64,000 bases of DNA from an uncultured bacterium (lineage in GTDB: Bacteria; Methylomirabilota; Methylomirabilia; Rokubacteriales; DASRDR01). The notes beneath the pieces were generated by a model, which was not told the DNA's origin, searched no databases, and was given only the letters and a program-made list of their open reading frames with translations. A program made the position numbers and the translations under genes. How positions within the stretch are numbered: the stretch's first letter is position 1; the number at the start of each line of letters is the position of its first letter. The stretch lies in assembly GCA_964416315.1 (NCBI GenBank), contig CAYQDR010000003.1, forward strand, positions 46,031 to 110,030. The letters run 5' to 3'. Below are positions 9,143-44,500 of the stretch, in pieces.

Positions 9143-10483
9143 CTACTCCCACATCGCGTCGAAGATGGAGCCGGCGAGCGTCGGGAAGACGTAGTGCATC
9201 GCGGCGAGATCCTGGCGCGTGAGCCCCCCGCGCATGGCGGCCGAAGCGACGTGGATCAGGTCCTCGGCCCCCGGACCGAGAATGTGGGCCCCAAGGAGCC
9301 GCCCGGTCGACGCCTCGGCCACCACCTTGACGAGGCCCTCGGTTTCCTCCCGCACCGCCGCCGCGGTGCTGTCCTCGAAGGGGACCCGGCTTACTGAGAC
9401 CTCGAGCCCCTGCCGCCGCGCCTCGGCCTCCGTGAGCCCGACCTGCCCGATCGCCGGGATCGTGAAGACGGCCGTGGGGAACCACCGGAGGTCCACCGCG
9501 CGCTGGTTGCCTCGGAGCGCGTTCTCCGCGACGAGGCGGCCCTCGTACCAGGCGACGGGGGTGTGCTGGTGCTGGCCCGTGACGTCGCCCGCGGCGTACA
9601 CATGCGCGGCCGTGGGTGACTGGCGGAACTCGTTGACCTTCACCCCGCCCCGCTCCACCGCCACGCCGGCGGCCTCGAGGCCGAGGCCGGCGGTGTTCGG
9701 GGGGCGGCCGGTCGCCACCAGGACGACGTCGCCCGGGAACCGCTCGGCGCGCCCCCCGACCTCCGCCTCGACCGTGCGGTCGGCGCCGATCCGCGTGACG
9801 CGCGCCCCCGTCCGGACCTCGAGCCCGGCGTCCCGGGCGATCGCGAGCAGCGCCTCGCGGATCTCGTCGTCCAGGGCCGGCAGGACGTGCGGCCCCGACT
9901 GGAGCACGGTGACGCGCGTCCCGGCCCGCGCAAAGGCGAAGCCGAGCTCCATCCCGATGTAGCCGCCGCCGACCACCACCATCCGCGCCGGCAGGGTGGC
10001 GTGGTCGAGCAACTCGTCGCTCGTCATGGCGTGCTCGATCCCGGGGATCGGCGGCCGGGCCGGGGAGGAGCCGGTCGCGATGATGACGCGCTCGGCCGTG
10101 ACCCGGCGCCCGGCGACGTCGAGCTCGCGCGGCCCGCGGAACGTCGCGCGGCCGCGGAGAACCGCGATCCCCTGCCGCTCGAAGCCCGTGTCCTTCCCGG
10201 CCGACCACTCCGCCACCAGGCGGTTCTTCCGCGCGATGATGGCACCCCAATCGAGCCCCAGCCCCGCCGTCCCCGTCACGCCCAGCCCGGCCGCGCGGCG
10301 CGCCCGCCAGGCCAGCTCCACGGTGCTGACCAGCACCTTTTTCGGGATTCAGCCGCGCCCGAGGCAGGTTCCCGCGAAGCCGTCCGCCTCCACGAGCGCC
10401 GTCCGGGCGCCGAGCCCGACGGCCGTCCGGGCGGCGAAGCCCCCCGCCGTTCCCGCGCCGATCACCAGGAGATCGTAGTCCAC
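9143..10483 (-). CDS. MerA-like flavoprotein disulfide reductase; in-frame TGA (10351-10349) at the second active-site Cys, candidate selenoprotein
   Basis: MDYDLLVIGAGTAGG FAD-binding fold. Active site GTCLGRG-[TGA]-IPKK where the family has CxxxxC. Blocks IIATGSSPARPPIPGI, LVATGRPPNT and VYAAGD resemble MerA-core blocks as recalled. Strong SD GGAGAGGAGG 5 nt before GTG 10483. The ORF track shows only the post-TGA part, 9143-10336. Confidence 0.7.
10322..10337 (-). ncRNA. SECIS-like stem-loop GGUGCU-GGUC-AGCACC, 11 nt downstream of the UGA at 10351
   Basis: Perfect 6-bp stem with GGUC loop. Spacing and loop match the E. coli fdhF SECIS apical hairpin as I recall it. Confidence 0.55.
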
Positions 10484-10523
10484 ACGGACCTCCTCTCCGC
10501 GAGTGACCCCGACTGCCGTCCTC

Positions 10524-10824: not shown

Positions 10825-11061
10825 CTACGCGAGCCCGAGCAGCCGCTCGAGCCTGCCCCGGTCGAAGCCCACCACGGCCTCGCCGTCGATGACGGTGACC
10901 GGCGTGGCGCGGTAACCGAGCGCCTGGAGCTCCGCCAGGGCGGCTGGGTCCTGACGGATGTTCCGGTCGGTGAACACGACGCCTTTCTGAGAAAGAAACT
11001 CTTTCTCCGCCTGGCAGGCCCCTCAGCCAGGCTGCGTGTAGACGACGACCGACTTGGCCAT
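10825..11061 (-). CDS. NrdH/glutaredoxin-like redoxin with UxxC motif (TGA at 11025-11023), candidate selenoprotein
   Basis: MAKSVVVYTQPG-[TGA]-GACQAEKEFL..TPVTVIDGE..VGF is the NrdH/Grx fold with the first Cys of CxxC replaced by TGA. SD GGAGGG before ATG 11061. Hairpin GAGAAAG-AGUUU-CUUUCUC at 10989-11007, 15 nt after the UGA. Confidence 0.65.
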
Positions 11062-11227: not shown

Positions 11228-11758
11228 TCAGAGCGAGGTGAAAACCTTCCGGTCGATCTCCCCCCGCTTCCCGACCCAGACCATGACCCCGTCGGCACCC
11301 GGACCCGGTCCCTCCGCGTCGGCCTCGAACTCGAGGGGCCCCCCGCAGTGGTGGCAGCGCGAGCGGATCTCCATGCACTGGCCCAGCATCGCCGCCACTC
11401 CGAGCGCGTCGATGGCGCAGCACGCGTACCGGCGCCGGCCGCCCGGGAGCACCACCGCGAACGCCGTCGGCACGGCGGCGAAGGGGTAGGCGAGCTCCAC
11501 CCGCCCCTCGCGGACAAGGATCAGGTCCCGCTCGTCCAGGCCCGCGACCTCCTCCAGCAGGCCATCGCGGGGTCGATCCGGAAACCAGGCCACGATCTCA
11601 TCGATCGGGATCGCTCCCTCCCGCTCGACAAACCGCCGGAGGATGCGCTGGAAGACCGCGTCCAGGCGCTCGGCCCGGCGGGTGGCCCAGCGCGCCTCGA
11701 GCTCCGGATCTACCAGCTCCTCGGCGGTCTTGATCTCCAGCGCCACCCGAGGCCTCAT
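11228..11758 (-). CDS. MerB-family (organomercurial lyase-like) paralogue
   Basis: YACCAIDALG and SRCHHCGG align with the MerB WCAxDTL and CxHxHFF catalytic regions. ATG 11758 directly abuts the merE stop. Confidence 0.6.
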   Translation of the reverse strand: MRPRVALEIKTAEELVDPELEARWATRRAERLDAVFQRILRRFVEREGAIPIDEIVAWFPDRPRDGLLEEVAGLDERDLILVREGRVELAYPFAAVPTAFAVVLPGGRRRYACCAIDALGVAAMLGQCMEIRSRCHHCGGPLEFEADAEGPGPGADGVMVWVGKRGEIDRKVFTSL

Positions 11759-12075
11759 GCGGCTGGACGGGGGGAGCCGCCCACCCCATTGGATTCGGCG
11801 ACCGGGGGCCGCGATTCGCCCGCCGTCCGGGGCGTCCCGCGGTCCGGCTCCCCCCAGGCCCGCAACCCGCGGAGCAGCGAGCCGGCGAAGACGACCGTCA
11901 TGACCGCGAAGGCCGCCGCCGCGTGCTCCCGGAGGACGGCGGCCAGGGCCGTGCCGCCCAACAGGGCGAGCGCCAGCGGAAGGTGGCACGGGCACGTGAC
12001 GGCGGCCACCCCGAGCAGGAGGTACGCCTTCCGTGGCCGCCCCGCCTCCGGTACGCCCCGGGTCATCGCCCGCAT
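11755..12075 (-). CDS. merE: MerE-like mercury transporter
   Basis: LLGVAAVTCPCHLPLALALLGGTALAAV matches the MerE LTCPCHLP transmembrane signature as recalled. Alternative ATG at 12066. Confidence 0.65.
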   Translation of the reverse strand: MRAMTRGVPEAGRPRKAYLLLGVAAVTCPCHLPLALALLGGTALAAVLREHAAAAFAVMTVVFAGSLLRGLRAWGEPDRGTPRTAGESRPPVAESNGVGGSPRPAA

Positions 12076-27455: not shown

Positions 27456-28495
27456 GCCGGGGGTTCCTCCCCGGACTCCCGTGCCTGATTGTCCATCTGG
27501 TCGCGACGGCTCCGGCCTGCGGCCTGCGCGACGTCGCTCCCTTCTTCACCTGCCTCTTCGTGCTCCTCGCCGGTCACGACCCGGATGAAGAGGTCCTCCA
27601 GAGAGAACCCGACCGGCCGCAGCTCGAGCAGCCCCCAGCGCTGCTCCGTCACGAGCTGGACCAGGTCGCGCCGGATGTCCCGCGCCCGTTCCGCCTCGAC
27701 GACGAACGTCCCGACGCCGTCGGCCACCCCCCGGCTTTCCACCCGGGTCACGCCGCGCAGGGCCCGGAGCGAGGCGGAGACCAGCTCGGGGGGGCCCTCC
27801 ACCTGCACCTGGACGCGCGCGACCGGCGAGAGCTCCTCCATCAGCCGATCGAGGGTGCCCGAGGCGACGATCCGCCCCCGATGGATGATCACGACCCCCT
27901 CGCACACCATCGAGACCTCGGGCAGGATGTGCGTCGAGAGGATGACCGTGTGCTCGCCTGCCAGCGACTTGATCAGGGCGCGGATCTCGATGATCTGCTT
28001 CGGATCGAGGCCGATGGTCGGCTCATCGAGGATCAGGACCTCCGGGTCGGCGATGAGCGCCTGGGCGAGCCCGACCCGCTGCCGGTAGCCTTTGGACAGC
28101 CGGCCGATCAGGCGGCCCGCTACGTCCTCGATCCGGCAGCGCTCCGTCACGTCGCCGATCCGGCGGCGCCGCTCGGCCCGCCCGAGCCCCTTGGCGTCGG
28201 CGACGAAGTCGAGGTAGGCTGCGACCGTCAGGTCGCCGTAGAGCGGCACGTTCTCCGGCAGGTACCCGATCCGCCGGCGGACCTCGAGGGAGTGCTCGAA
28301 GACGTCGTAGCCAGCGACGCGCGCAGTCCCGCTCGAGGCGGGCATGTAGCAGGACAGGATCCGCATCGTCGTCGTCTTCCCCGCCCCGTTCGGGCCGAGG
28401 AAACCGACGATCTGGCCCTTCTCCACGGAGAAGGAGACGTCGCGGATGGCCGCGACCGGGCCGTAGTACTTCGTCAGGCGATCGACCTCGATCAT
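27452..28495 (-). CDS. ABC transporter ATP-binding protein
   Basis: Walker A GPNGAGKTT, signature LSKGYRQR, Walker B ILILDEPT. Confidence 0.85.
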   Translation of the reverse strand: MIEVDRLTKYYGPVAAIRDVSFSVEKGQIVGFLGPNGAGKTTTMRILSCYMPASSGTARVAGYDVFEHSLEVRRRIGYLPENVPLYGDLTVAAYLDFVADAKGLGRAERRRRIGDVTERCRIEDVAGRLIGRLSKGYRQRVGLAQALIADPEVLILDEPTIGLDPKQIIEIRALIKSLAGEHTVILSTHILPEVSMVCEGVVIIHRGRIVASGTLDRLMEELSPVARVQVQVEGPPELVSASLRALRGVTRVESRGVADGVGTFVVEAERARDIRRDLVQLVTEQRWGLLELRPVGFSLEDLFIRVVTGEEHEEAGEEGSDVAQAAGRSRRDQMDNQARESGEEPPA

Positions 28496-28585
28496 CGCGC
28501 GCTCCGGTCAGGGCTCGGGATCAGGCGTCGGGGCTCCCTGAAGTTGAAGCAGTGTCCGGCGAGGATTATAGCACGTCGCCGATTT

Positions 28586-28686
28586 CCCTCTCCCCGCCGG
28601 GGGAGAGGGTGGGGTGAGGGGGACCCAGCACCCGCGCGCCTCCCTCACCCTGGCCCTCTCCCTCCCAGGAGGGAGAGGGAAGAATC
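28586..28686. repeat. two inverted family B repeat units
   Basis: ccctctccccgccgggggagagggtggggtgaggggg ... cctccctcaccctggccctctccctcccaggagggagagggaag. Confidence 0.5.
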
Positions 28687-28691
28687 CAGCG

Positions 28692-30347
28692 TCAGATGAG
28701 CCCAGTGATGGTGCCGGCCGCGTCGACGTCGATCCGCTCGGCGTTCGGCGAGCGCGGGAGGCCCGGCATCGTCATGATCTCGCCCGTGATCGGCACGAGG
28801 AACCCCGCCCCGGCCGAGATCCGCACTTCGCTCACGGTCACCGCGAAGTCCCGCGGCCGGCCGAGGAGCGCCGGGTCGTCCGAGAGCGAGCGCTGGGTCT
28901 TCGCCATGCAGATCGGCAGCCCCGCGTACCCGAGCGCCTCGGCCTGGGCGATCTGCGCCTCGGCGCGCTTCGTGTAGACGACCCGCTCGGCCCCGTACAT
29001 CCGCGTCGCGATCGTCTCGATCTTCGCCCGGATCGGCGCTGCCCAGTCGTAGAGCGGCCGGAAGCGCGCGGGCTCGCGCGCGAGGAGATCCACGAGCGCG
29101 GCAGCCAGGCCCTCGCCCCCCGCGCCGCCCTGCCGGAAGACGTCGGCGACCTCCGCGCGGACGCCCAGGCCCGCGCAGTGCTCGGTGATCGCGGCCAACT
29201 CGGCATCCGTGTCGGAGGGGAAGCGGTTCAGCGCGACCACCAGCGGCACGCCGAAGAGTCGGATGTCCTCGACGTGCTGCTCGAGGTTCGCGATCCCGCG
29301 CTTGATCGCCGGGAGATCCTCCTGGTCCACCCCGCTCATGGGCACGCCGCCGTGGTACTTGAGCGCGCGCGCCGTGGCGACCAGCACGACGGCGTCGGGG
29401 GCGAGACCCGCGTAGCCGCACTTGATGTCGAAGAACTTCTCGGCCCCGAGGTCGAAGCCGAACCCTGCTTCCGTCACGCAGATCTCGCCGAGCTTGAGGG
29501 CGAGCTTGGTGGCGACGACCGAGTTGCAGCCGTGCGCGATGTTCGCGAAGGGCCCGCCGTGGATCAGCGCCGGCGTGCCCTCGAGCGTCTGGACGAGGTT
29601 TGGGTGGATCGCGTCGCGGAGGAGCGCCGCCATCGCGCCGGTGACCTTCAGGTCCGCCGCGTGGACGGGGCGGCCGTCGAAGGTGAAGGCGAGCAGGATC
29701 CGACCCAGGCGCGCCTTGAGATCCGTCAAGTTCTCGGCCAGGCAGAGGAGGGCCATGACCTCCGAGGCGGCCGTGATGAGGAAGCCCTCTTCCCGGGGAT
29801 AGCCCTGGAGGCGGCCCCCCAGCCCCAGCACGGTCTGGCGGAGCGCCCGGTCGTTCATGTCGAGCGCCCGCCGGAAGAGGATCTGCCGCGGGTCGATCCG
29901 GAGCAGGTTGTCGTGGAAGAGGTGGTTGTCGAGGCACGCCGCGAGGAGGTTGTGGGCACTCGAGACGGCGTGGAGATCGCCCGTGAAGTGGAGGTTGATC
30001 TCGTCGGCGGGGACCACCTGGGCGCGGCCGCCGCCAGTCCCGCCCCCCTTGACGCCGAGGCAGGGGCCGATCGAGGGCTCGCGGAGGGCGACCACGGCGC
30101 GCCGCCCGACGCGGGCGAGGGCCTGGCCGAGGCCGATCGTCACGGTGGTCTTGCCGTCCCCGGGCGGCGTCGGCGTGATCGAGGAGACCACGACGAGCTT
30201 CCCGTTCGGGCGGTCGCGCCGCGTCTCCAGCACCCGCAGGTGAACCTTGGCCTTGGCGTGGCCGTAGGGGATGAGGTCGGCGTCGCCGAGGCCGAGGCCG
30301 GCCGCGACCTCGCCGATCGATCGGATCGTGGACACCCGCGCGCTCAC
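28692..30347 (-). CDS. fhs: formate--tetrahydrofolate ligase
   Basis: TPTPPGDGKTTVTIGL (PTPAGEGKTT signature) and full-length FTHFS homology. GTG start at 30347 chosen by N-terminal alignment to known Fhs proteins. The rest of the 671-aa ORF overlaps arsC in another frame. Confidence 0.85.
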   Translation of the reverse strand: MSARVSTIRSIGEVAAGLGLGDADLIPYGHAKAKVHLRVLETRRDRPNGKLVVVSSITPTPPGDGKTTVTIGLGQALARVGRRAVVALREPSIGPCLGVKGGGTGGGRAQVVPADEINLHFTGDLHAVSSAHNLLAACLDNHLFHDNLLRIDPRQILFRRALDMNDRALRQTVLGLGGRLQGYPREEGFLITAASEVMALLCLAENLTDLKARLGRILLAFTFDGRPVHAADLKVTGAMAALLRDAIHPNLVQTLEGTPALIHGGPFANIAHGCNSVVATKLALKLGEICVTEAGFGFDLGAEKFFDIKCGYAGLAPDAVVLVATARALKYHGGVPMSGVDQEDLPAIKRGIANLEQHVEDIRLFGVPLVVALNRFPSDTDAELAAITEHCAGLGVRAEVADVFRQGGAGGEGLAAALVDLLAREPARFRPLYDWAAPIRAKIETIATRMYGAERVVYTKRAEAQIAQAEALGYAGLPICMAKTQRSLSDDPALLGRPRDFAVTVSEVRISAGAGFLVPITGEIMTMPGLPRSPNAERIDVDAAGTITGLI

Positions 30348-30691
30348 GAGAGCCCACCCAGCGCGCGCCGATAGAGCTCCTCGGTGAAGCCCCGCACGAG
30401 GAGCCCGCCGTCCACGAGGACCGGTACCCGCATCCAGCCGTCCTCGTGGATCAAGTACGTCGCCACCTCCTGGTCCGTCATCGCGCCCCCCTCCGCCGAG
30501 AAGTGCAGGATCTCCTGCCCCGCCTTGACCCAGAGCTCCCGCGCCGCCCAGGCCAGCGCCAGCGTCACCGCGCGCCCGACCGGCCGCTCCTCGACGTAGC
30601 GGTTCTCGAACGCGATGCCGTGAGCCGAGAGGAACCCTCTCGCGCCGGTGCAGGTCGGTCAGTTGTGGCGGTTGTAGAGGATCGCGGTCAT
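30344..30691 (-). CDS. ArsC/Spx-family protein with catalytic Cys replaced by in-frame TGA (30661-30659), candidate selenoprotein
   Basis: MTAILYNRHN-[TGA]-PTCTGARGFL...MRVPVLVDGGLLVRGFTEELY aligns with the ArsC/Spx fold (IYHNPAC / NCDT region, C-terminal RPIVV.DG...GF). Hairpin CGAGAGG-AAC-CCUCUCG at 30626-30642, 16 nt after the UGA. Stop overlaps the fhs GTG as GTGA. Confidence 0.6.
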
Positions 30692-30734
30692 TCCGGTCCC
30701 CCCTCACCCCAGCCCCCTATCAAGACAGCCTGTC

Positions 30735-31163
30735 TCATGCCGGGGGCCCGGGCGCCGGATCGGGCTCGGGCACGAGGAGCGCGCCGAGCCACTCGGGGAT
30801 GGCGATCATCTTCTGGGTCTCCGGGTGCCAGCAGGCGTGGCGGGTCTCACCGGTCGCGACGAGCTCGCCCGTCTCGGCGTGCCGGATCTCGTAGCGGAAG
30901 AGGAAGGAGGCGCGCCTCCGCTCGCCGATCCAGCAGCGCACGCGGAGGAGGTCGTCGAGCCGCGCGGCCCGGACGTAGCGCACGCTCGCTTCGACGACCG
31001 GCATGTGGATCTTCCGGTCCACCTCCGCCATCGGGAAGCCGTTCTGCCGGAGGAACTCGACGCGCCCGACCTCGAAGTAGACGAGGTAGTTCGCGTAGTA
31101 GACGACTCCCATCGTGTCGGTCTCGGCGTACCGCACGCGCATCGTCGTCTCCCCGATCATCAC
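30735..31163 (-). CDS. hotdog-fold acyl-CoA thioesterase (YbgC/4HBT family)
   Basis: RVRYAETDTMGVVYYANYLVYFEVGR is the 4HBT thioesterase signature. Confidence 0.75.
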   Translation of the reverse strand: MMIGETTMRVRYAETDTMGVVYYANYLVYFEVGRVEFLRQNGFPMAEVDRKIHMPVVEASVRYVRAARLDDLLRVRCWIGERRRASFLFRYEIRHAETGELVATGETRHACWHPETQKMIAIPEWLGALLVPEPDPAPGPPA

Positions 31164-31165
31164 TT

Positions 31166-31192
31166 CGGAGGGGGGCTACGCCCCCCTCCGAC
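31166..31192. repeat. family A core hairpin tcggagggggg-ctacg-cccccctccga
   Basis: Same palindrome as 15878-15904 and the 3' part of 2790-2897. Immediately upstream of the thioesterase start. Confidence 0.5.
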
Positions 31193-31373
31193 GGCCCTCC
31201 CGGCAAAGCCGGGCCGTTCGCCCTCCGGCGAACGGCTCGGGCCTGCCTCCCCCCAGCATTCCCCGGCAAGGCGACACCGCGAACCCGATCATGGCGTCAG
31301 GGTCGCGCGGGCAGACCGCGGGGGTGGCGCCGGGCGAGCCGCAGAGCGCCCGCGCGCAGTGGGACCCCTTTAG

Positions 31374-31406
31374 CTCCTCCCGCGATTCCGCGAATCGCGG
31401 GAGGAG
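31374..31406. terminator. 33-bp near-perfect palindrome ctcctcccgcgattc-ccg-cgaatcgcgggaggag
   Basis: 15-bp arms. Lies downstream of the AAA ATPase gene and upstream of the thioesterase-arsC-fhs unit. Confidence 0.45.
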
Positions 31407-31468
31407 GTAAACGGGTGACGCGCGCGGGCGCGGCCGTCGGCGAGCCCGGCGACAGGACCCCCGCGCTC

Positions 31469-32395
31469 TCACAGGTACTGGCCGTAGCGGATCTTGACCA
31501 CGACGTCGCGGACCCGCCGGAAGTCGTCCACCGCCTGCAGGAGGTTCGCCGTGCTGACGAGCCCCGGGTCCGCGCCCGACCCCGCGAGCTGCACCTTGGC
31601 CTCGAGCGCCCGGCGCAGCACCTCCGCGATATCGCCGCCGCTCATGCCCGCGAGCCGGGGCGAGAGCGCGTCGAAGTCCAGCGGCTCGAACAGCGGCCGC
31701 TCCGCCCGCTTCTCCGCCCGCACCCGATGGATCTCCAGGATCTCCCGGAGCGCCGCGCCCTCGGGGAGCGGCACCTCGATGAGGCGGTCGAGGCGGCCCG
31801 GCGCGATCAGCGCGGACTCGATCCCGTCGGGACGGCTCGTGGACGCGAGCACGAAAAGGTTCGGGAAGGCGTCGAGCCCGTCGAGCAGGTCACAGAGCCC
31901 GCTGACGAGCGGGGCCGCGGCTTCGCGGGCGCGCTCCAGGGGCAGCACGTGCTCGAGCGACACGGCGTCGGCGTCATCGAAGAACACGACCCCTTTCCCC
32001 TCCGACGCCGCGAGCTGGAAGACCTCCCGGACGACCTCCACGGCGCCGGGCCCGACGCGGGAGGTCAGCGTCGCGAGCCGCAGGTGGTAGAAGAGCGCTT
32101 CGGCGGCGGTGGCGAGCGCCTTCGCGAGCAGCGTCTTGCCGTTCCCGGGCGGCCCGTAGAGCAGGGCGCCGCGCGGGGGCGCGATGCCCCAGCGCCGGTA
32201 GAGCTCGGGGGTGCGCAGCGCGTACGAGAGCCCGCTGACCACGCGCTTGGCTGGCTCGGCGCCCCCGATCATCTCGAACGTCACGGCGGGGCGCGGCACC
32301 ACCTCGATCCGCCCCCGCAGGTCGCCGAATTTCGGCTCGAGCTTCGTCAGCAGGTCGTCGAGGCGGCGCTGGACCGTCCACTCGAGGGCCGGCAC
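31469..32395 (-). CDS. AAA+ ATPase
   Basis: Walker A GPPGNGKT and Walker B VVFFDDAD. Confidence 0.7.
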   Translation of the reverse strand: MPALEWTVQRRLDDLLTKLEPKFGDLRGRIEVVPRPAVTFEMIGGAEPAKRVVSGLSYALRTPELYRRWGIAPPRGALLYGPPGNGKTLLAKALATAAEALFYHLRLATLTSRVGPGAVEVVREVFQLAASEGKGVVFFDDADAVSLEHVLPLERAREAAAPLVSGLCDLLDGLDAFPNLFVLASTSRPDGIESALIAPGRLDRLIEVPLPEGAALREILEIHRVRAEKRAERPLFEPLDFDALSPRLAGMSGGDIAEVLRRALEAKVQLAGSGADPGLVSTANLLQAVDDFRRVRDVVVKIRYGQYL

Positions 32396-32417
32396 GGCCA
32401 GGCTCAGACCTGGGGCT

Positions 32418-32945
32418 CTAGAAGTGAGGCGTGGGACCGATCTTCGGCATCACCCGCTCCGCCTTGTCGAAGACGCGGTCCTCCACGAGGATCGGGACCT
32501 TCGCGCGGAGCGCGAGGGCGATGGCGTCGGAGGGGCGTGAGTCCACGGTGCGCTGGGCGCCGTTGACGTCCAGGTGCAGCACCGCGTAGTAGACGTCGTC
32601 CTTCAGGTCCGTGATCACGATGCGCCGCAGCGAGACCTTGAGGTCCGTCAGGAGCGTCAGCATGAGGTCGTGCGTCAACGGGCGCGGCGGCGTCACGCCC
32701 TGGAGGGGGATCGCGATGCCGTTGGCCTCGAAGTGGCCGATGGTCATGACCAGGTGGCGCTTGTCGCGCTTGCCCTGGAGGATGACGACCGGCTGCCGCG
32801 ACTGCGGATCGAGCACGACCCCGGTGACCTCGGCCTCCTGCGGTCCCGTGGCCGGCCCGGTTTTCTCGGCGATGTCCTTTGCCCCCAGGGTGATCAGCCC
32901 GATCACCATCAGGACCCCGACCGTACCGCCCCGGCGCATCCGCAT
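32418..32945 (-). CDS. bifunctional nuclease (BFN/DUF151) domain protein
   Basis: PVVILQGKRDKRHLVMTIGHFEANGIAIPLQG..THDLMLTLL matches the BFN domain. Start chosen at the internal ATG before the hydrophobic signal. Confidence 0.6.
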   Translation of the reverse strand: MRMRRGGTVGVLMVIGLITLGAKDIAEKTGPATGPQEAEVTGVVLDPQSRQPVVILQGKRDKRHLVMTIGHFEANGIAIPLQGVTPPRPLTHDLMLTLLTDLKVSLRRIVITDLKDDVYYAVLHLDVNGAQRTVDSRPSDAIALALRAKVPILVEDRVFDKAERVMPKIGPTPHF

Positions 32946-42639: not shown

Positions 42640-44500
42640 GCTTACCGATGATCTCTCGGCGTCAAGCATGCGCAGCGCCAGGATAGCGGACCGTGCCGAA
42701 CAACCGATGCAGCCCGAGCCCCCTCAGCCAGCCGAACGACCACCGGGAGATCGCCGCGTGCCGGTCCCGCAGACCGTGACGCCGGGCCAGAAACAGCCCG
42801 AGCCGTTGCCGCACGTAGTGATCGATCTGGTTGAACTTCAGGGTGGCATTCCCAGCCGCGCGATGACGACCCGCACGTCCTTCACCCCGCTGTGCCGCGC
42901 GTCCGTCAGCTCTCGAATGCGAGCCCCGAAGCCGCTTCATGCTCCTCGGCGACGGCCATCGCTGCAAAAACATCCGGCCGGGATACCGCACCGACCGGCA
43001 CTTCTTCAGCCGACATCCGAGGAACTCGAAGCCCTCCTGCCCGCCCCCGAGCGCCACCAGCCGCGTCTTCTCCGGATGCGCCTCCAATCAGCCCCACCCG
43101 CCTGAGCGCCTCCCGCGCCTGCCCCTCGGTGCGACAGAGCACCACGAGATCGTCGGCGTAGCGAACCAACACGCCGAGCCCCGCGCACCGCTGCTGCCAG
43201 ATCCGATCGAGCCCATGCCGGGAGATGTTCGAGAGCAGCGGCGAGATTACCCCACCCTGCGGCGTCCCCACCACCGTCGCCTCTCGACGCCCTTCCTCCA
43301 GCACCCCGGCCTTCAGCCATCGCCGGATCAGCTTCAGCACCCGCCGGTCCGACACCCGCCGCCCCACTTCCCCCATCAGCCGGTCGTGGTCGATGCGGCC
43401 GAAGTAGTCCTGAATGTCGACCTCTACCACATGATCGTGCCCCTGGTTCGCTGTGACCCGAATGGTCTCCAGCGCCTCCGTGGCGCTTCGCTTCGGCCGG
43501 AACCCGTAGGACACCGGCAGAAAATCGGCCTCGAAGAGCGGCTCGATCACCAGCTTGGTCGCCATCTGCACGACCCGGTCCCGGACTGTCGGAATGCCCA
43601 ACGGCCGTCGCCGTCCATCCGCCTTCGGGATGTACCGCCGCTCCACCGGTGCCGGTCGGTACCGCCCAGCCTTGAGGTCGGCCTGGATCTCGTGAAGAAA
43701 CCCCTCGACCCCCCGCTGCTCAATGGCCGCGATCGTCTCGCCGTCCACCCCCGCAGCGCCCCGATTCGCTCGCACCCCGCGCCACGCTTCCCACAGGACG
43801 TCACTCCTGTAGATCCGGTCGTACAGCGCGTGGAACCGCCGCCCCCGACTCCGCTTGGCCGCACGCCACAGCGCCCGCTGGAGTTCTCGCACTTTGCCGT
43901 CCGGGTCGTTGGAGCTTGCGCTCATGCCCTCGCGCTTACCCCCAGGCGGACGCATGACCAAAGCAGGGGCCCTTCCCTCCAGGCGATTGTCTCGCCCTTC
44001 CCCGGTACTCCGACCCCCTCGGACGCCCTCCCGACGCCCCGCCGTTTCGGACTCGCCTTATCGACGTGGCCGTGCTCTGACTTGAGCCGTCGGGGAGGGC
44101 CTCTCCAGTTCCGCACCGGGCCATGGACACGTGCCGCTCCCCGTACCCCGGAGGGGTCCAGCGCCGCGCCGATCCTTACGCGCTGTCTGTGGCCTTCGCC
44201 GTGACATGCCCGGCTCGGCCCCCTCTGCCTTTCGGCTGATAATCTGACGAGGCGGCAGGATTCACGTGATGTTGCGGCCCGCGCCCTCGCTCCCTCCGTA
44301 GAGGCTCTTGACGCCCTGCTCAGCGTCGAGGCTCTCACCTCGCCGCCAGGGCCTGCTACTGAGCGCATCGGCGCTTACTCAGGCGGGACTTCCACCCGCA
44401 GGTCCGGTGCAGCTTGGCTGGACGCAGCACGGGAACAGCATACCACTCGCTCCCCTGGACTGGACCCCAAGGGCGCCGTCCGTGGGTGATCCAGGATCCG
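42640..44500 (-). mobile_element. group II intron (boundaries approximate) with degenerate intron-encoded protein
   Basis: Intron-encoded protein has RT motifs [30 protein letters not shown] and YADDLVV. The maturase/X domain [11 protein letters not shown]...NQIDHYVRQRL continues in a different frame. About 550 nt of non-coding 5' sequence fits domains I-III. Confidence 0.55.
42662..43925 (-). pseudogene. group II intron RT/maturase with frameshift between RT and X domains
   Basis: RT domain in frame of ORF 42906-43961 (start ATG 43925). X domain in frame of ORF 42662-43087. Confidence 0.55.

Follow-up and report, generated by a model that had tools for sequence, protein, structure and literature searches.

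A candidate selenoprotein gene from the ArsC/Spx-like branch of the thioredoxin fold, located beside fhs in a Rokubacterial contig

The DNA analyzed here is a stretch of 64,000 nt from an uncultured bacterium of the Rokubacteriales (Methylomirabilota; GenBank assembly GCA_964416315.1, contig CAYQDR010000003.1, positions 46,031 to 110,030 of the forward strand). The full stretch is referred to as the window, and positions are counted along it. Between a gene for a hotdog thioesterase and fhs, the gene for formate--tetrahydrofolate ligase, lies a short gene interrupted by an in-frame TGA. A previous reading made from the letters alone (the sequence-only reading) had proposed that it encodes an ArsC/Spx-family protein with selenocysteine (Sec) at its catalytic position, translationally coupled to fhs. 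Our comparisons of sequences and models indicate that the gene very probably does encode a selenoprotein, one belonging to the thioredoxin fold's ArsC/Spx-like branch and most likely acting as a small selenol/thiol-disulfide oxidoreductase. The features of the locus, including a predicted bacterial selenocysteine insertion sequence (SECIS; bSECIS for the bacterial type), are as follows.

30344..30691, minus strand: predicted ArsC/Spx-like thioredoxin-fold selenoprotein gene, 115 codons, ATG at 30691-30689 and terminal TGA at 30346-30344, from translation.
30659..30661, minus strand: predicted Sec codon, an in-frame UGA at codon 11 within a U-P-T-C (UxxC) redox motif, from the same codon in 11 distinct sequences, Cys homologues and the alignment with Spx Cys10.
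30626..30642, minus strand: predicted bSECIS hairpin, from its energy, the bSECIS constraints, pairing and codon conservation.
28692..30347, minus strand: fhs, formate--tetrahydrofolate ligase (Pfam FTHFS, 819 bits; NF010030, 822 bits).
30735..31163, minus strand: YbgC/FadM-type hotdog acyl-CoA thioesterase (Pfam 4HBT_2 and 4HBT; TIGR00051, 103.9 bits, above the cutoff of 68.7).

The selenoprotein gene starts 43 nt after the end of the thioesterase gene, with a Shine-Dalgarno-like run, GAGGGGGG, 6 nt 5' of its ATG. Position 30735, which the sequence-only reading had taken as the boundary of the gene, belongs to the stop codon of the thioesterase, although that reading had named the preceding hotdog thioesterase correctly. 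The predicted product of 115 residues reads MTAILYNRHN-U-PTCTGARGFLS..., continues after the U as PTCTGARGFLSAHGIAFENRYVEERPVGR... and ends in LYRRALGGLS. Its terminal TGA (30346-30344) shares the letters GTGA with the GTG start of fhs (30347-30345), an overlap that had been described before and that we could confirm. The fhs gene is full-length, and its N-terminus from GTG 30347, MSARVSTIRSIGEV, resembles that of the fhs at a related locus, L014 (VSAARLRPISDI; related loci and proteins are given by L and P numbers). The GTG is a credible start because the MSA(A)R common to both N-termini is also present in L014, where no overlap exists. Scans of 28400-32600 for promoters and terminators gave nothing above chance.

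The first line of evidence for Sec was the conservation of the UGA. Only five relatives were found among the 5.8 billion proteins searched, all of them short open reading frames (ORFs) of 74-103 residues without a Pfam domain, as would be expected if gene callers take a Sec codon for a stop. The sequence set was assembled from the contigs of these five relatives, from loci found by scanning genomes (one, in a Candidatus Rokuibacteriota metagenome-assembled genome, MAG) and metagenomes (three), and from four distant, likewise shortened matches of an exhaustive HMMER search. Soil metagenomes were among the sources, and most of the sequence diversity came from contigs encoding the shortened database proteins. 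Together these gave 11 distinct sequences with 36-69% protein identity to the window, and at the DNA level the TGA was at the same codon in 11 of 11. The sequence-only reading had named broken relatives with non-conserved stop positions as the outcome that would speak against it, and the opposite was found.

The reading frame of the orthologues is conserved across the TGA. In-frame residues are retained on its 5' side ([IVL][LF]Y..., plus a start codon) as well as on its 3' side (P[TSA]C..A[RG]EFLS..G[IV]), and the third codon position varies more than positions 1 and 2, a coding-type pattern that holds before the TGA and from the TGA to the annotated starts. Full-length homologues have Cys in the Sec column, as CPAC in P0016, CPSC in P0042, and CxTC or CxSC in P0033, P0038, P0054 and P0055. 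Such coexisting Sec and Cys homologues are the classical Sec/Cys signature, here read from aligned sequences. A genome-wide reassignment of TGA (code 4 or 25) was considered and rejected, as TGA is the ordinary stop in 6 of the 8 genes checked (the selenoprotein gene and its neighbors). Two other variants were seen at this motif. In two full-length relatives the Sec/Cys position is taken by Arg (RPSC in P0008, RSGS in P0046), the Arg codons CGA and AGA each being one mutation from TGA, and one Sec form, L018 (635-), reads U-E-S-S and so is without a resolving Cys.

The sequence-only reading had also noted a SECIS-like hairpin 16 nt downstream of the TGA, and this was present in the same register in 11 of 11 sequences. 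In the window it has the form CGAGAGG-GUU-CCUCUCG, a perfect 7-bp stem that begins 16 nt past the UGA and places the apical loop 23 nt past it. The energy of the core is -9.3 kcal/mol, and -13.8 kcal/mol with a bulged lower extension. The published bSECIS model calls for a loop of 3-9 nt, a stem of 4-16 bp, a G in the first two loop positions, a UGA-to-loop distance of 16-37 nt and a minimum free energy of -7.5 kcal/mol or lower (PMC13188914). The window hairpin lies within all four published constraints (GUU loop of 3 nt, stem of 7 bp, loop opened by G-U, distance of 23 nt, -9.3 kcal/mol).

The 11 sequences align without gaps, with the stem in the same columns and register throughout. Pairing is retained in 90.9% of the cells, and two pairs show double changes. 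At the apical pair, 35-39, the window has G-C where seven others have A-U (a double change of GGG/TTC versus GAG/TTT). At pair 31-43, nine sequences have A-U, L018 has C-G and L017 has G-U. Codon usage gives stronger evidence for the hairpin than covariation does. When seven close orthologues were compared in pairs, the rate of synonymous differences was 0.05 over the six hairpin codons and 0.377 over the remainder of the gene. Within the hairpin, Arg is fixed as AGA, a codon used for none of the 163 Arg codons of six neighboring genes; in the orthologues the hairpin also fixes TTT for Phe, a codon that occurs once among 86 Phe codons of the window's neighboring genes. In L015, the one Cys-form homologue whose DNA was compared, those columns form no hairpin (-0.4 kcal/mol). 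A role for the hairpin as a terminator was rejected on the grounds that it lies inside the conserved ORF and is without a T-run. No SECIS-type match was obtained from Rfam, either for the whole window at the gathering threshold or for 30560-30720 at E up to 10, which says little because we saw no Rfam family for generic bacterial SECIS hairpins.

Comparisons of family and fold placed the protein nearest to Spx and ArsC-related proteins. The profile of its clade, searched against PDB sequences, had Spx as its top match (E 1.6e-6, full length), followed by other ArsC-family proteins and glutaredoxins. By hhalign, the alignment with B. subtilis Spx had a probability of 98.5%, with U11 on Cys10 and C14 on Cys13. 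The placement of the TGA at the position of the nucleophilic Cys in the sequence-only reading thus stands, while the motif it gave, NxC, is in fact U-P-T-C, or UxxC. The corresponding match to R773 ArsC had a probability of 84.9% and its C-terminal part was out of register. The clade conserves both R88, which belongs to the RVP motif, and R100; the Arg60/Arg94/Arg107 triad of R773 ArsC was not placeable in this out-of-register alignment.

Of the NCBIfam models, NF041106 ('ArsC family (seleno)protein') matched best, with 47.4 bits over its full length (positions 4-107 of 107). Members of that family (P0033, P0038, P0054, P0055 and P0051) score 93-119 bits and carry the motif G[RP]SGxLRAP. The window clade scores 34-59 bits and carries HEDG[WF][ML]RVP and VRG[YF]; from these motifs and scores, it appears to be an unmodelled sister clade of NF041106 and not a member. 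An AlphaFold2 model of P0008, the closest full-length relative, had a predicted local distance difference test score (pLDDT) of 89.9 and a thioredoxin fold with an insert. In this model residues 52-65 (approximately 52-64 of the window protein, WVKAGQEILHFSA) form part of the insert that joins strand 2 to strand 3 and is made up of a beta-hairpin and helices. The beta-hairpin, unlike the all-helical insert of Spx and ArsC, limits superposition to about 86 residues. Similarity to ArsC/Spx structures, whose thioredoxin fold carries an insertion after strand 2 and before strand 3, was nonetheless found both in fold and by full-length profile, and membership in the ArsC/Spx family in the broad sense, nearest to the Spx-like (cd03032) branch and with a divergent insert, is supported.

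The locus has a conserved UGA, a conserved and partly co-varying hairpin, Cys homologues and a fold family in which the UxxC sits at helix 1. From what is known of how bacteria decode Sec and of how thioredoxin-fold proteins with CxxC work, we infer Sec insertion, redox chemistry and a substrate in the following way. A ribosome starting at ATG 30691 would meet the UGA at codon 11, where the GUU-loop hairpin of the mRNA, acting as a bacterial SECIS, would recruit SelB with Sec-tRNA(Sec), and Sec would be inserted instead of termination taking place. Translation would then continue to the second TGA (30346-30344), which is without such a hairpin and overlaps the start of fhs. In the folded protein, U11-x-x-C14 is expected at the start of helix 1, the place of the CxxC in Spx and glutaredoxin. 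The selenolate would attack an oxidized substrate to give an adduct, which C14 would resolve as a selenenylsulfide, and the protein would be regenerated by a reductase of the cell. A general or stress-related role as a thiol/selenol oxidoreductase is the most likely one. Spx-like regulation, arsenate reduction and a specific link to fhs are each unlikely.

Several observations weigh against the interpretation of this gene as an ArsC/Spx-like selenoprotein gene, the support for whose clade would appear to be computational throughout. With respect to the family, the only Pfam match at E <= 0.01 was PF00462 Glutaredoxin (residues 4-41), the threshold of PF03960 ArsC was not passed, and the NF041106 score is below that model's cutoff of 85. 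The family proposed by the sequence-only reading was borne out by profile and fold, for which Spx and ArsC are nearest, and not by these two domain models. The structure model is that of P0008, a relative of 49% identity, rather than of the window protein itself. No tRNA gene, tRNA-Sec included, was found in the window, in which selA, selB and selD were not searched for. With respect to the hairpin, covariation is modest, as each of the two pairs with double changes depends on one sequence. The shuffle control was only moderately convincing, with 17 of 500 shuffles reaching the observed pairing value, and the (GA)n/(UC)n stem pairs in part even when slid by 2 columns. The SECIS and covariation checks suggested by the sequence-only reading came out in its favor for the bSECIS constraints and the two double-change pairs, and less clearly for the extent of covariation and the shuffles. 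The hairpin overlies the conserved peptide AREFLS, so that its conservation is partly at the level of the protein. Lastly, the 66-nt fold was no more stable than shuffles (z = -0.2) in its GC-rich context; this score is uninformative in GC-rich sequence, and it is the local hairpin and the comparative data that carry the argument.

To place the gene in its genomic context, the neighbor proteins of the window were mapped onto all related loci. The order in the window is MFS, BFN, AAA, thioesterase, selenoprotein gene, fhs and ABC transporter. At L020 it is BFN, AAA, thioesterase, selenoprotein gene, fhs and ABC, with MFS not seen and a 43-nt gap before fhs. L001/L011, and in part L009 and L010, have the order of the window plus an ORF of 92 residues between the selenoprotein gene and fhs. 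L007/L014 have AAA, selenoprotein gene and fhs, with no thioesterase and a gap of about 140 nt before fhs. At L012/L013, AAA, a 19-residue remnant of the thioesterase, the selenoprotein gene and ABC are present and fhs is absent. The distant Sec form L016 lies among Cu-oxidase, SCO1/AhpC and AsnC-type genes, another, L017, lies beside an FAD monooxygenase, and luciferase-like and cupin genes adjoin P0008. The only constant element across the loci is the selenoprotein gene itself. The ORF of 92 residues (6255-6533 in L001; also in L009, L010 and L011) is conserved, has no NCBIfam match and is missing from the window, L020 and L014.

Another reading is that the HEDG[WF][ML]RVP clade forms a distinct, Sec-predominant ArsC/Spx-like subfamily with a possible role tied to its AAA-ATPase/thioesterase/fhs neighborhood, to which we give a small chance. 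Such a role may be, for example, the redox control of one-carbon (C1) or acyl-CoA metabolism; the members of the clade come from Rokubacteria and from other lineages of soil and groundwater metagenomes, and their insert is predicted to contain a beta-hairpin.

A narrower proposal is improbable, namely that the selenoprotein is functionally coupled to fhs and/or the thioesterase, for example by regulating C1 or acyl-CoA metabolism or serving it as a dedicated redox partner, and that the overlap reflects required stoichiometric co-expression. It draws on the 4-nt GTGA overlap in the window and on recurring gene orders: L020 repeats the series thioesterase, ArsC-like gene and fhs, L001/L011 do so with one more ORF, and L007/L014 share AAA, ArsC-like gene and fhs. 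However, the loci that share synteny are close relatives (60-69% identity for the selenoprotein, 82-88% for FTHFS), and because of this common descent suffices to explain the shared order. The overlap is unique to the window, fhs being separated from the selenoprotein gene by the gaps in L020 and L014 and by the 92-residue ORF in L001, L009 and L010. In addition, L012/L013 retain the selenoprotein gene without fhs, L007/L014 retain it without the thioesterase, and the distant Sec forms L016 and L017, as well as P0008, are found in other contexts. We also know of no redox requirement in FTHFS chemistry. The thioesterase-arsC-fhs synteny that the sequence-only reading had suggested looking for was thus found in L020 and, with the additional ORF, in L001/L011, and did not extend to L007/L014, L012/L013, L016 or L017. 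Its view of the pairing with fhs as meaningful did not hold, given the intervening ORF or gap in relatives, the absence of fhs in L012/L013 and the location of the distant members elsewhere. Gene order across these loci suggests that the adjacency to fhs reflects a conserved Rokubacterial neighborhood and not an obligate functional pair; it looks like a chance feature of the lineage, and a functional partnership of fhs and the selenoprotein is not supported by the comparison. In this one genome the GTGA overlap probably gives tight co-expression.

Also improbable, and slightly more so, is a Sec-containing Spx-like regulator, that is, a redox switch that binds the C-terminal domain of the RNA polymerase alpha subunit (alpha-CTD) and alters transcription under disulfide stress. 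Spx is the best relative of solved structure by both sequence profile and fold, and U11 and C14 of the UxxC align exactly with the C10-x-x-C13 redox switch of Spx. However, identity to Spx is only about 18-22%, and the alignment has a 4-residue deletion adjoining Spx Gly52, which we take to be in the region that contacts the alpha-CTD. The protein also stops at about Spx residue 116, without the Spx C-terminal tail, and its insert is predicted to contain a beta-hairpin in place of the helical Spx subdomain. To our knowledge, the characterized Spx proteins are confined to Firmicutes.

It was judged very unlikely that the gene encodes an R773 ArsC-type arsenate reductase that is coupled to glutaredoxin and uses Sec as its nucleophile. 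The Sec position presumably corresponds to Cys12 of R773 ArsC, going by the spacing from a conserved Tyr, a correspondence that was made by eye and not taken from the hhalign alignment. The Joint Genome Institute (JGI) annotates one homologue as 'arsenate reductase-like glutaredoxin family protein', and Sec-containing 'arsenate reductase' families have been described in the literature (PMC2398784, PMC13188914). However, the match to R773 ArsC is much weaker than that to Spx (84.9% versus 98.5%), and its C-terminal alignment is out of register, so that the Arg60/Arg94/Arg107 triad cannot be placed. Published Sec-containing ArsC of the TIGR00014 type is UxxS and not UxxC (PMC13188914). Finally, no ars gene (arsR, arsB or acr3, for example) was present among the identified neighbors in the window or at most related loci, many of the ORFs at L017 being without a family match.

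The remaining alternative, in which the TGA really terminates translation, leaving a pseudogene or a leader of 10 codons, and the 74-residue ORF from GTG 30568, as annotated in the databases, gives the true product, is in keeping with automatic gene callers annotating only the downstream part (P0001-P0005) and with a window in which the tRNA scan found no Sec machinery (selA, selB and selD not having been searched for), but is highly implausible because the annotated starts vary among the orthologues (74-103 residues) and yet the peptide between TGA and start is conserved with coding-type substitutions, seven residues before the TGA and the start codon are conserved, the TGA is invariant down to 36% identity, and the shortened product would lose strand 1 and the redox motif.

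Further Sec candidates in the window lend support to Sec decoding. A covariance model, built from the 11 orthologous elements only and run on both strands of the whole window, recovered its training site at 54 bits and had its second-best match, of 20.9 bits (rough E about 0.004), at 11025. The match falls in a Grx/YruB/NrdH-like ORF of 78 residues (10825-11061, minus strand; Grx, glutaredoxin) with a TGA at 11025-11023, which is a second selenoprotein candidate. It reads MAKSVVVYTQPG-U-GACQAEKEFLS... and has an 8-bp hairpin, GAGAAAGA-GUU-UCUUUCUC, 15 nt after its TGA. This match is not fully independent, as the two genes are distantly homologous and share an E-F-L peptide there. Close by, a gene for a MerA-like flavoprotein disulfide reductase (about 9143-10500, minus strand; best NCBIfam match MerA, 305 bits, below cutoff) has an in-frame TGA at 10351-10349 in place of the second Cys of the redox-active CxxxxC (GTCLGRG-U-IPKK) and a hairpin, GGUGCU-GGUC-AGCACC, 11 nt 3' of the TGA. 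A MerB-like, SaoL-related ORF is at 11228-11995. The MerA-like locus is probably the 'mer locus' to which the sequence-only reading had compared the hairpin layout.

That reading had held that Sec machinery must be active genome-wide. This is not demonstrable from the window, and the idea is consistent with the two further candidates and with a Methylomirabilota MAG reported to have 63 predicted selenoprotein genes (PMC13188914). The only above-threshold Rfam match in the window was to a group II intron domain D1-D4 RNA (RF02003, 90.5 bits; 44267-44401, minus strand).

The practical value of these findings is in annotation. Every database entry found for the clade (74-103 residues, without a Pfam domain) is shortened at the Sec codon, and corrected entries would add a selenoprotein to the genomes of Rokubacteria and Methylomirabilota, a lineage recently reported to have very large selenoproteomes. 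The 11 aligned SECIS hairpins and the two further candidates in the window illustrate how SECIS elements look in this phylum. Knowledge of selenoproteins or of folate metabolism is unchanged by the finding.

The sequence-only reading was right that Sec-containing ArsC-like proteins had been predicted computationally. 'ArsC-like' selenoproteins were listed in 2006 (PMC1794560), and Zhang and Gladyshev's 2008 analysis of Global Ocean Sampling (GOS) data listed 'Arsenate reductase 2, cd03032, UxxC' with 42 Sec and 238 Cys sequences (PMC2398784). An 'Arsenate reductase-like protein, UxxC' is listed in a selenoproteome review of 2026 (PMC13188914), and NF041106 equals both this protein and 'Arsenate reductase 2'. 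As UxxC ArsC/Spx-like selenoproteins have been predicted since 2006-2008, the kind is known; the window clade appears to be unmodelled and uniformly mis-annotated.

Among these and other known systems, NF041106 shares with the window protein a length of about 110-120 residues, a thioredoxin-like fold with an insert, an N-terminal U/CxxC and the coexistence of Sec and Cys forms. The window protein differs from that family in the motifs of its clade (HEDG[WF][ML]RVP and VRG[YF] versus G[RP]SGxLRAP of the members) and in its score (47.4 bits versus a cutoff of 85). Unlike Spx of Bacillus subtilis and Streptococcus (PDB 1Z3E, 6GHB and 3L78), the window protein has Sec in place of Cys10, a 4-residue deletion near Gly52 and no C-terminal tail; in addition, its insert has a predicted beta-hairpin, only about 86 residues superpose, and nothing points to binding of RNA polymerase. 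With R773-type ArsC (PF03960 and TIGR00014, including its UxxS Sec form) it shares the superfamily and the conserved position of the nucleophile, but the match is weaker (84.9%), the triad is unaligned, UxxC stands in place of UxxS or CxxS, and there is no ars operon context. Sec-containing glutaredoxins and thioredoxins (for example, the Grx of Clostridium oremlandii cited in PMC13188914) are similar in having UxxC in a thioredoxin fold and a bSECIS directly 3' of the UGA. Unlike a simple Grx or NrdH, however, the window protein has about 45 additional residues inserted after strand 2 and before strand 3, and its best full-length matches are to ArsC and Spx.

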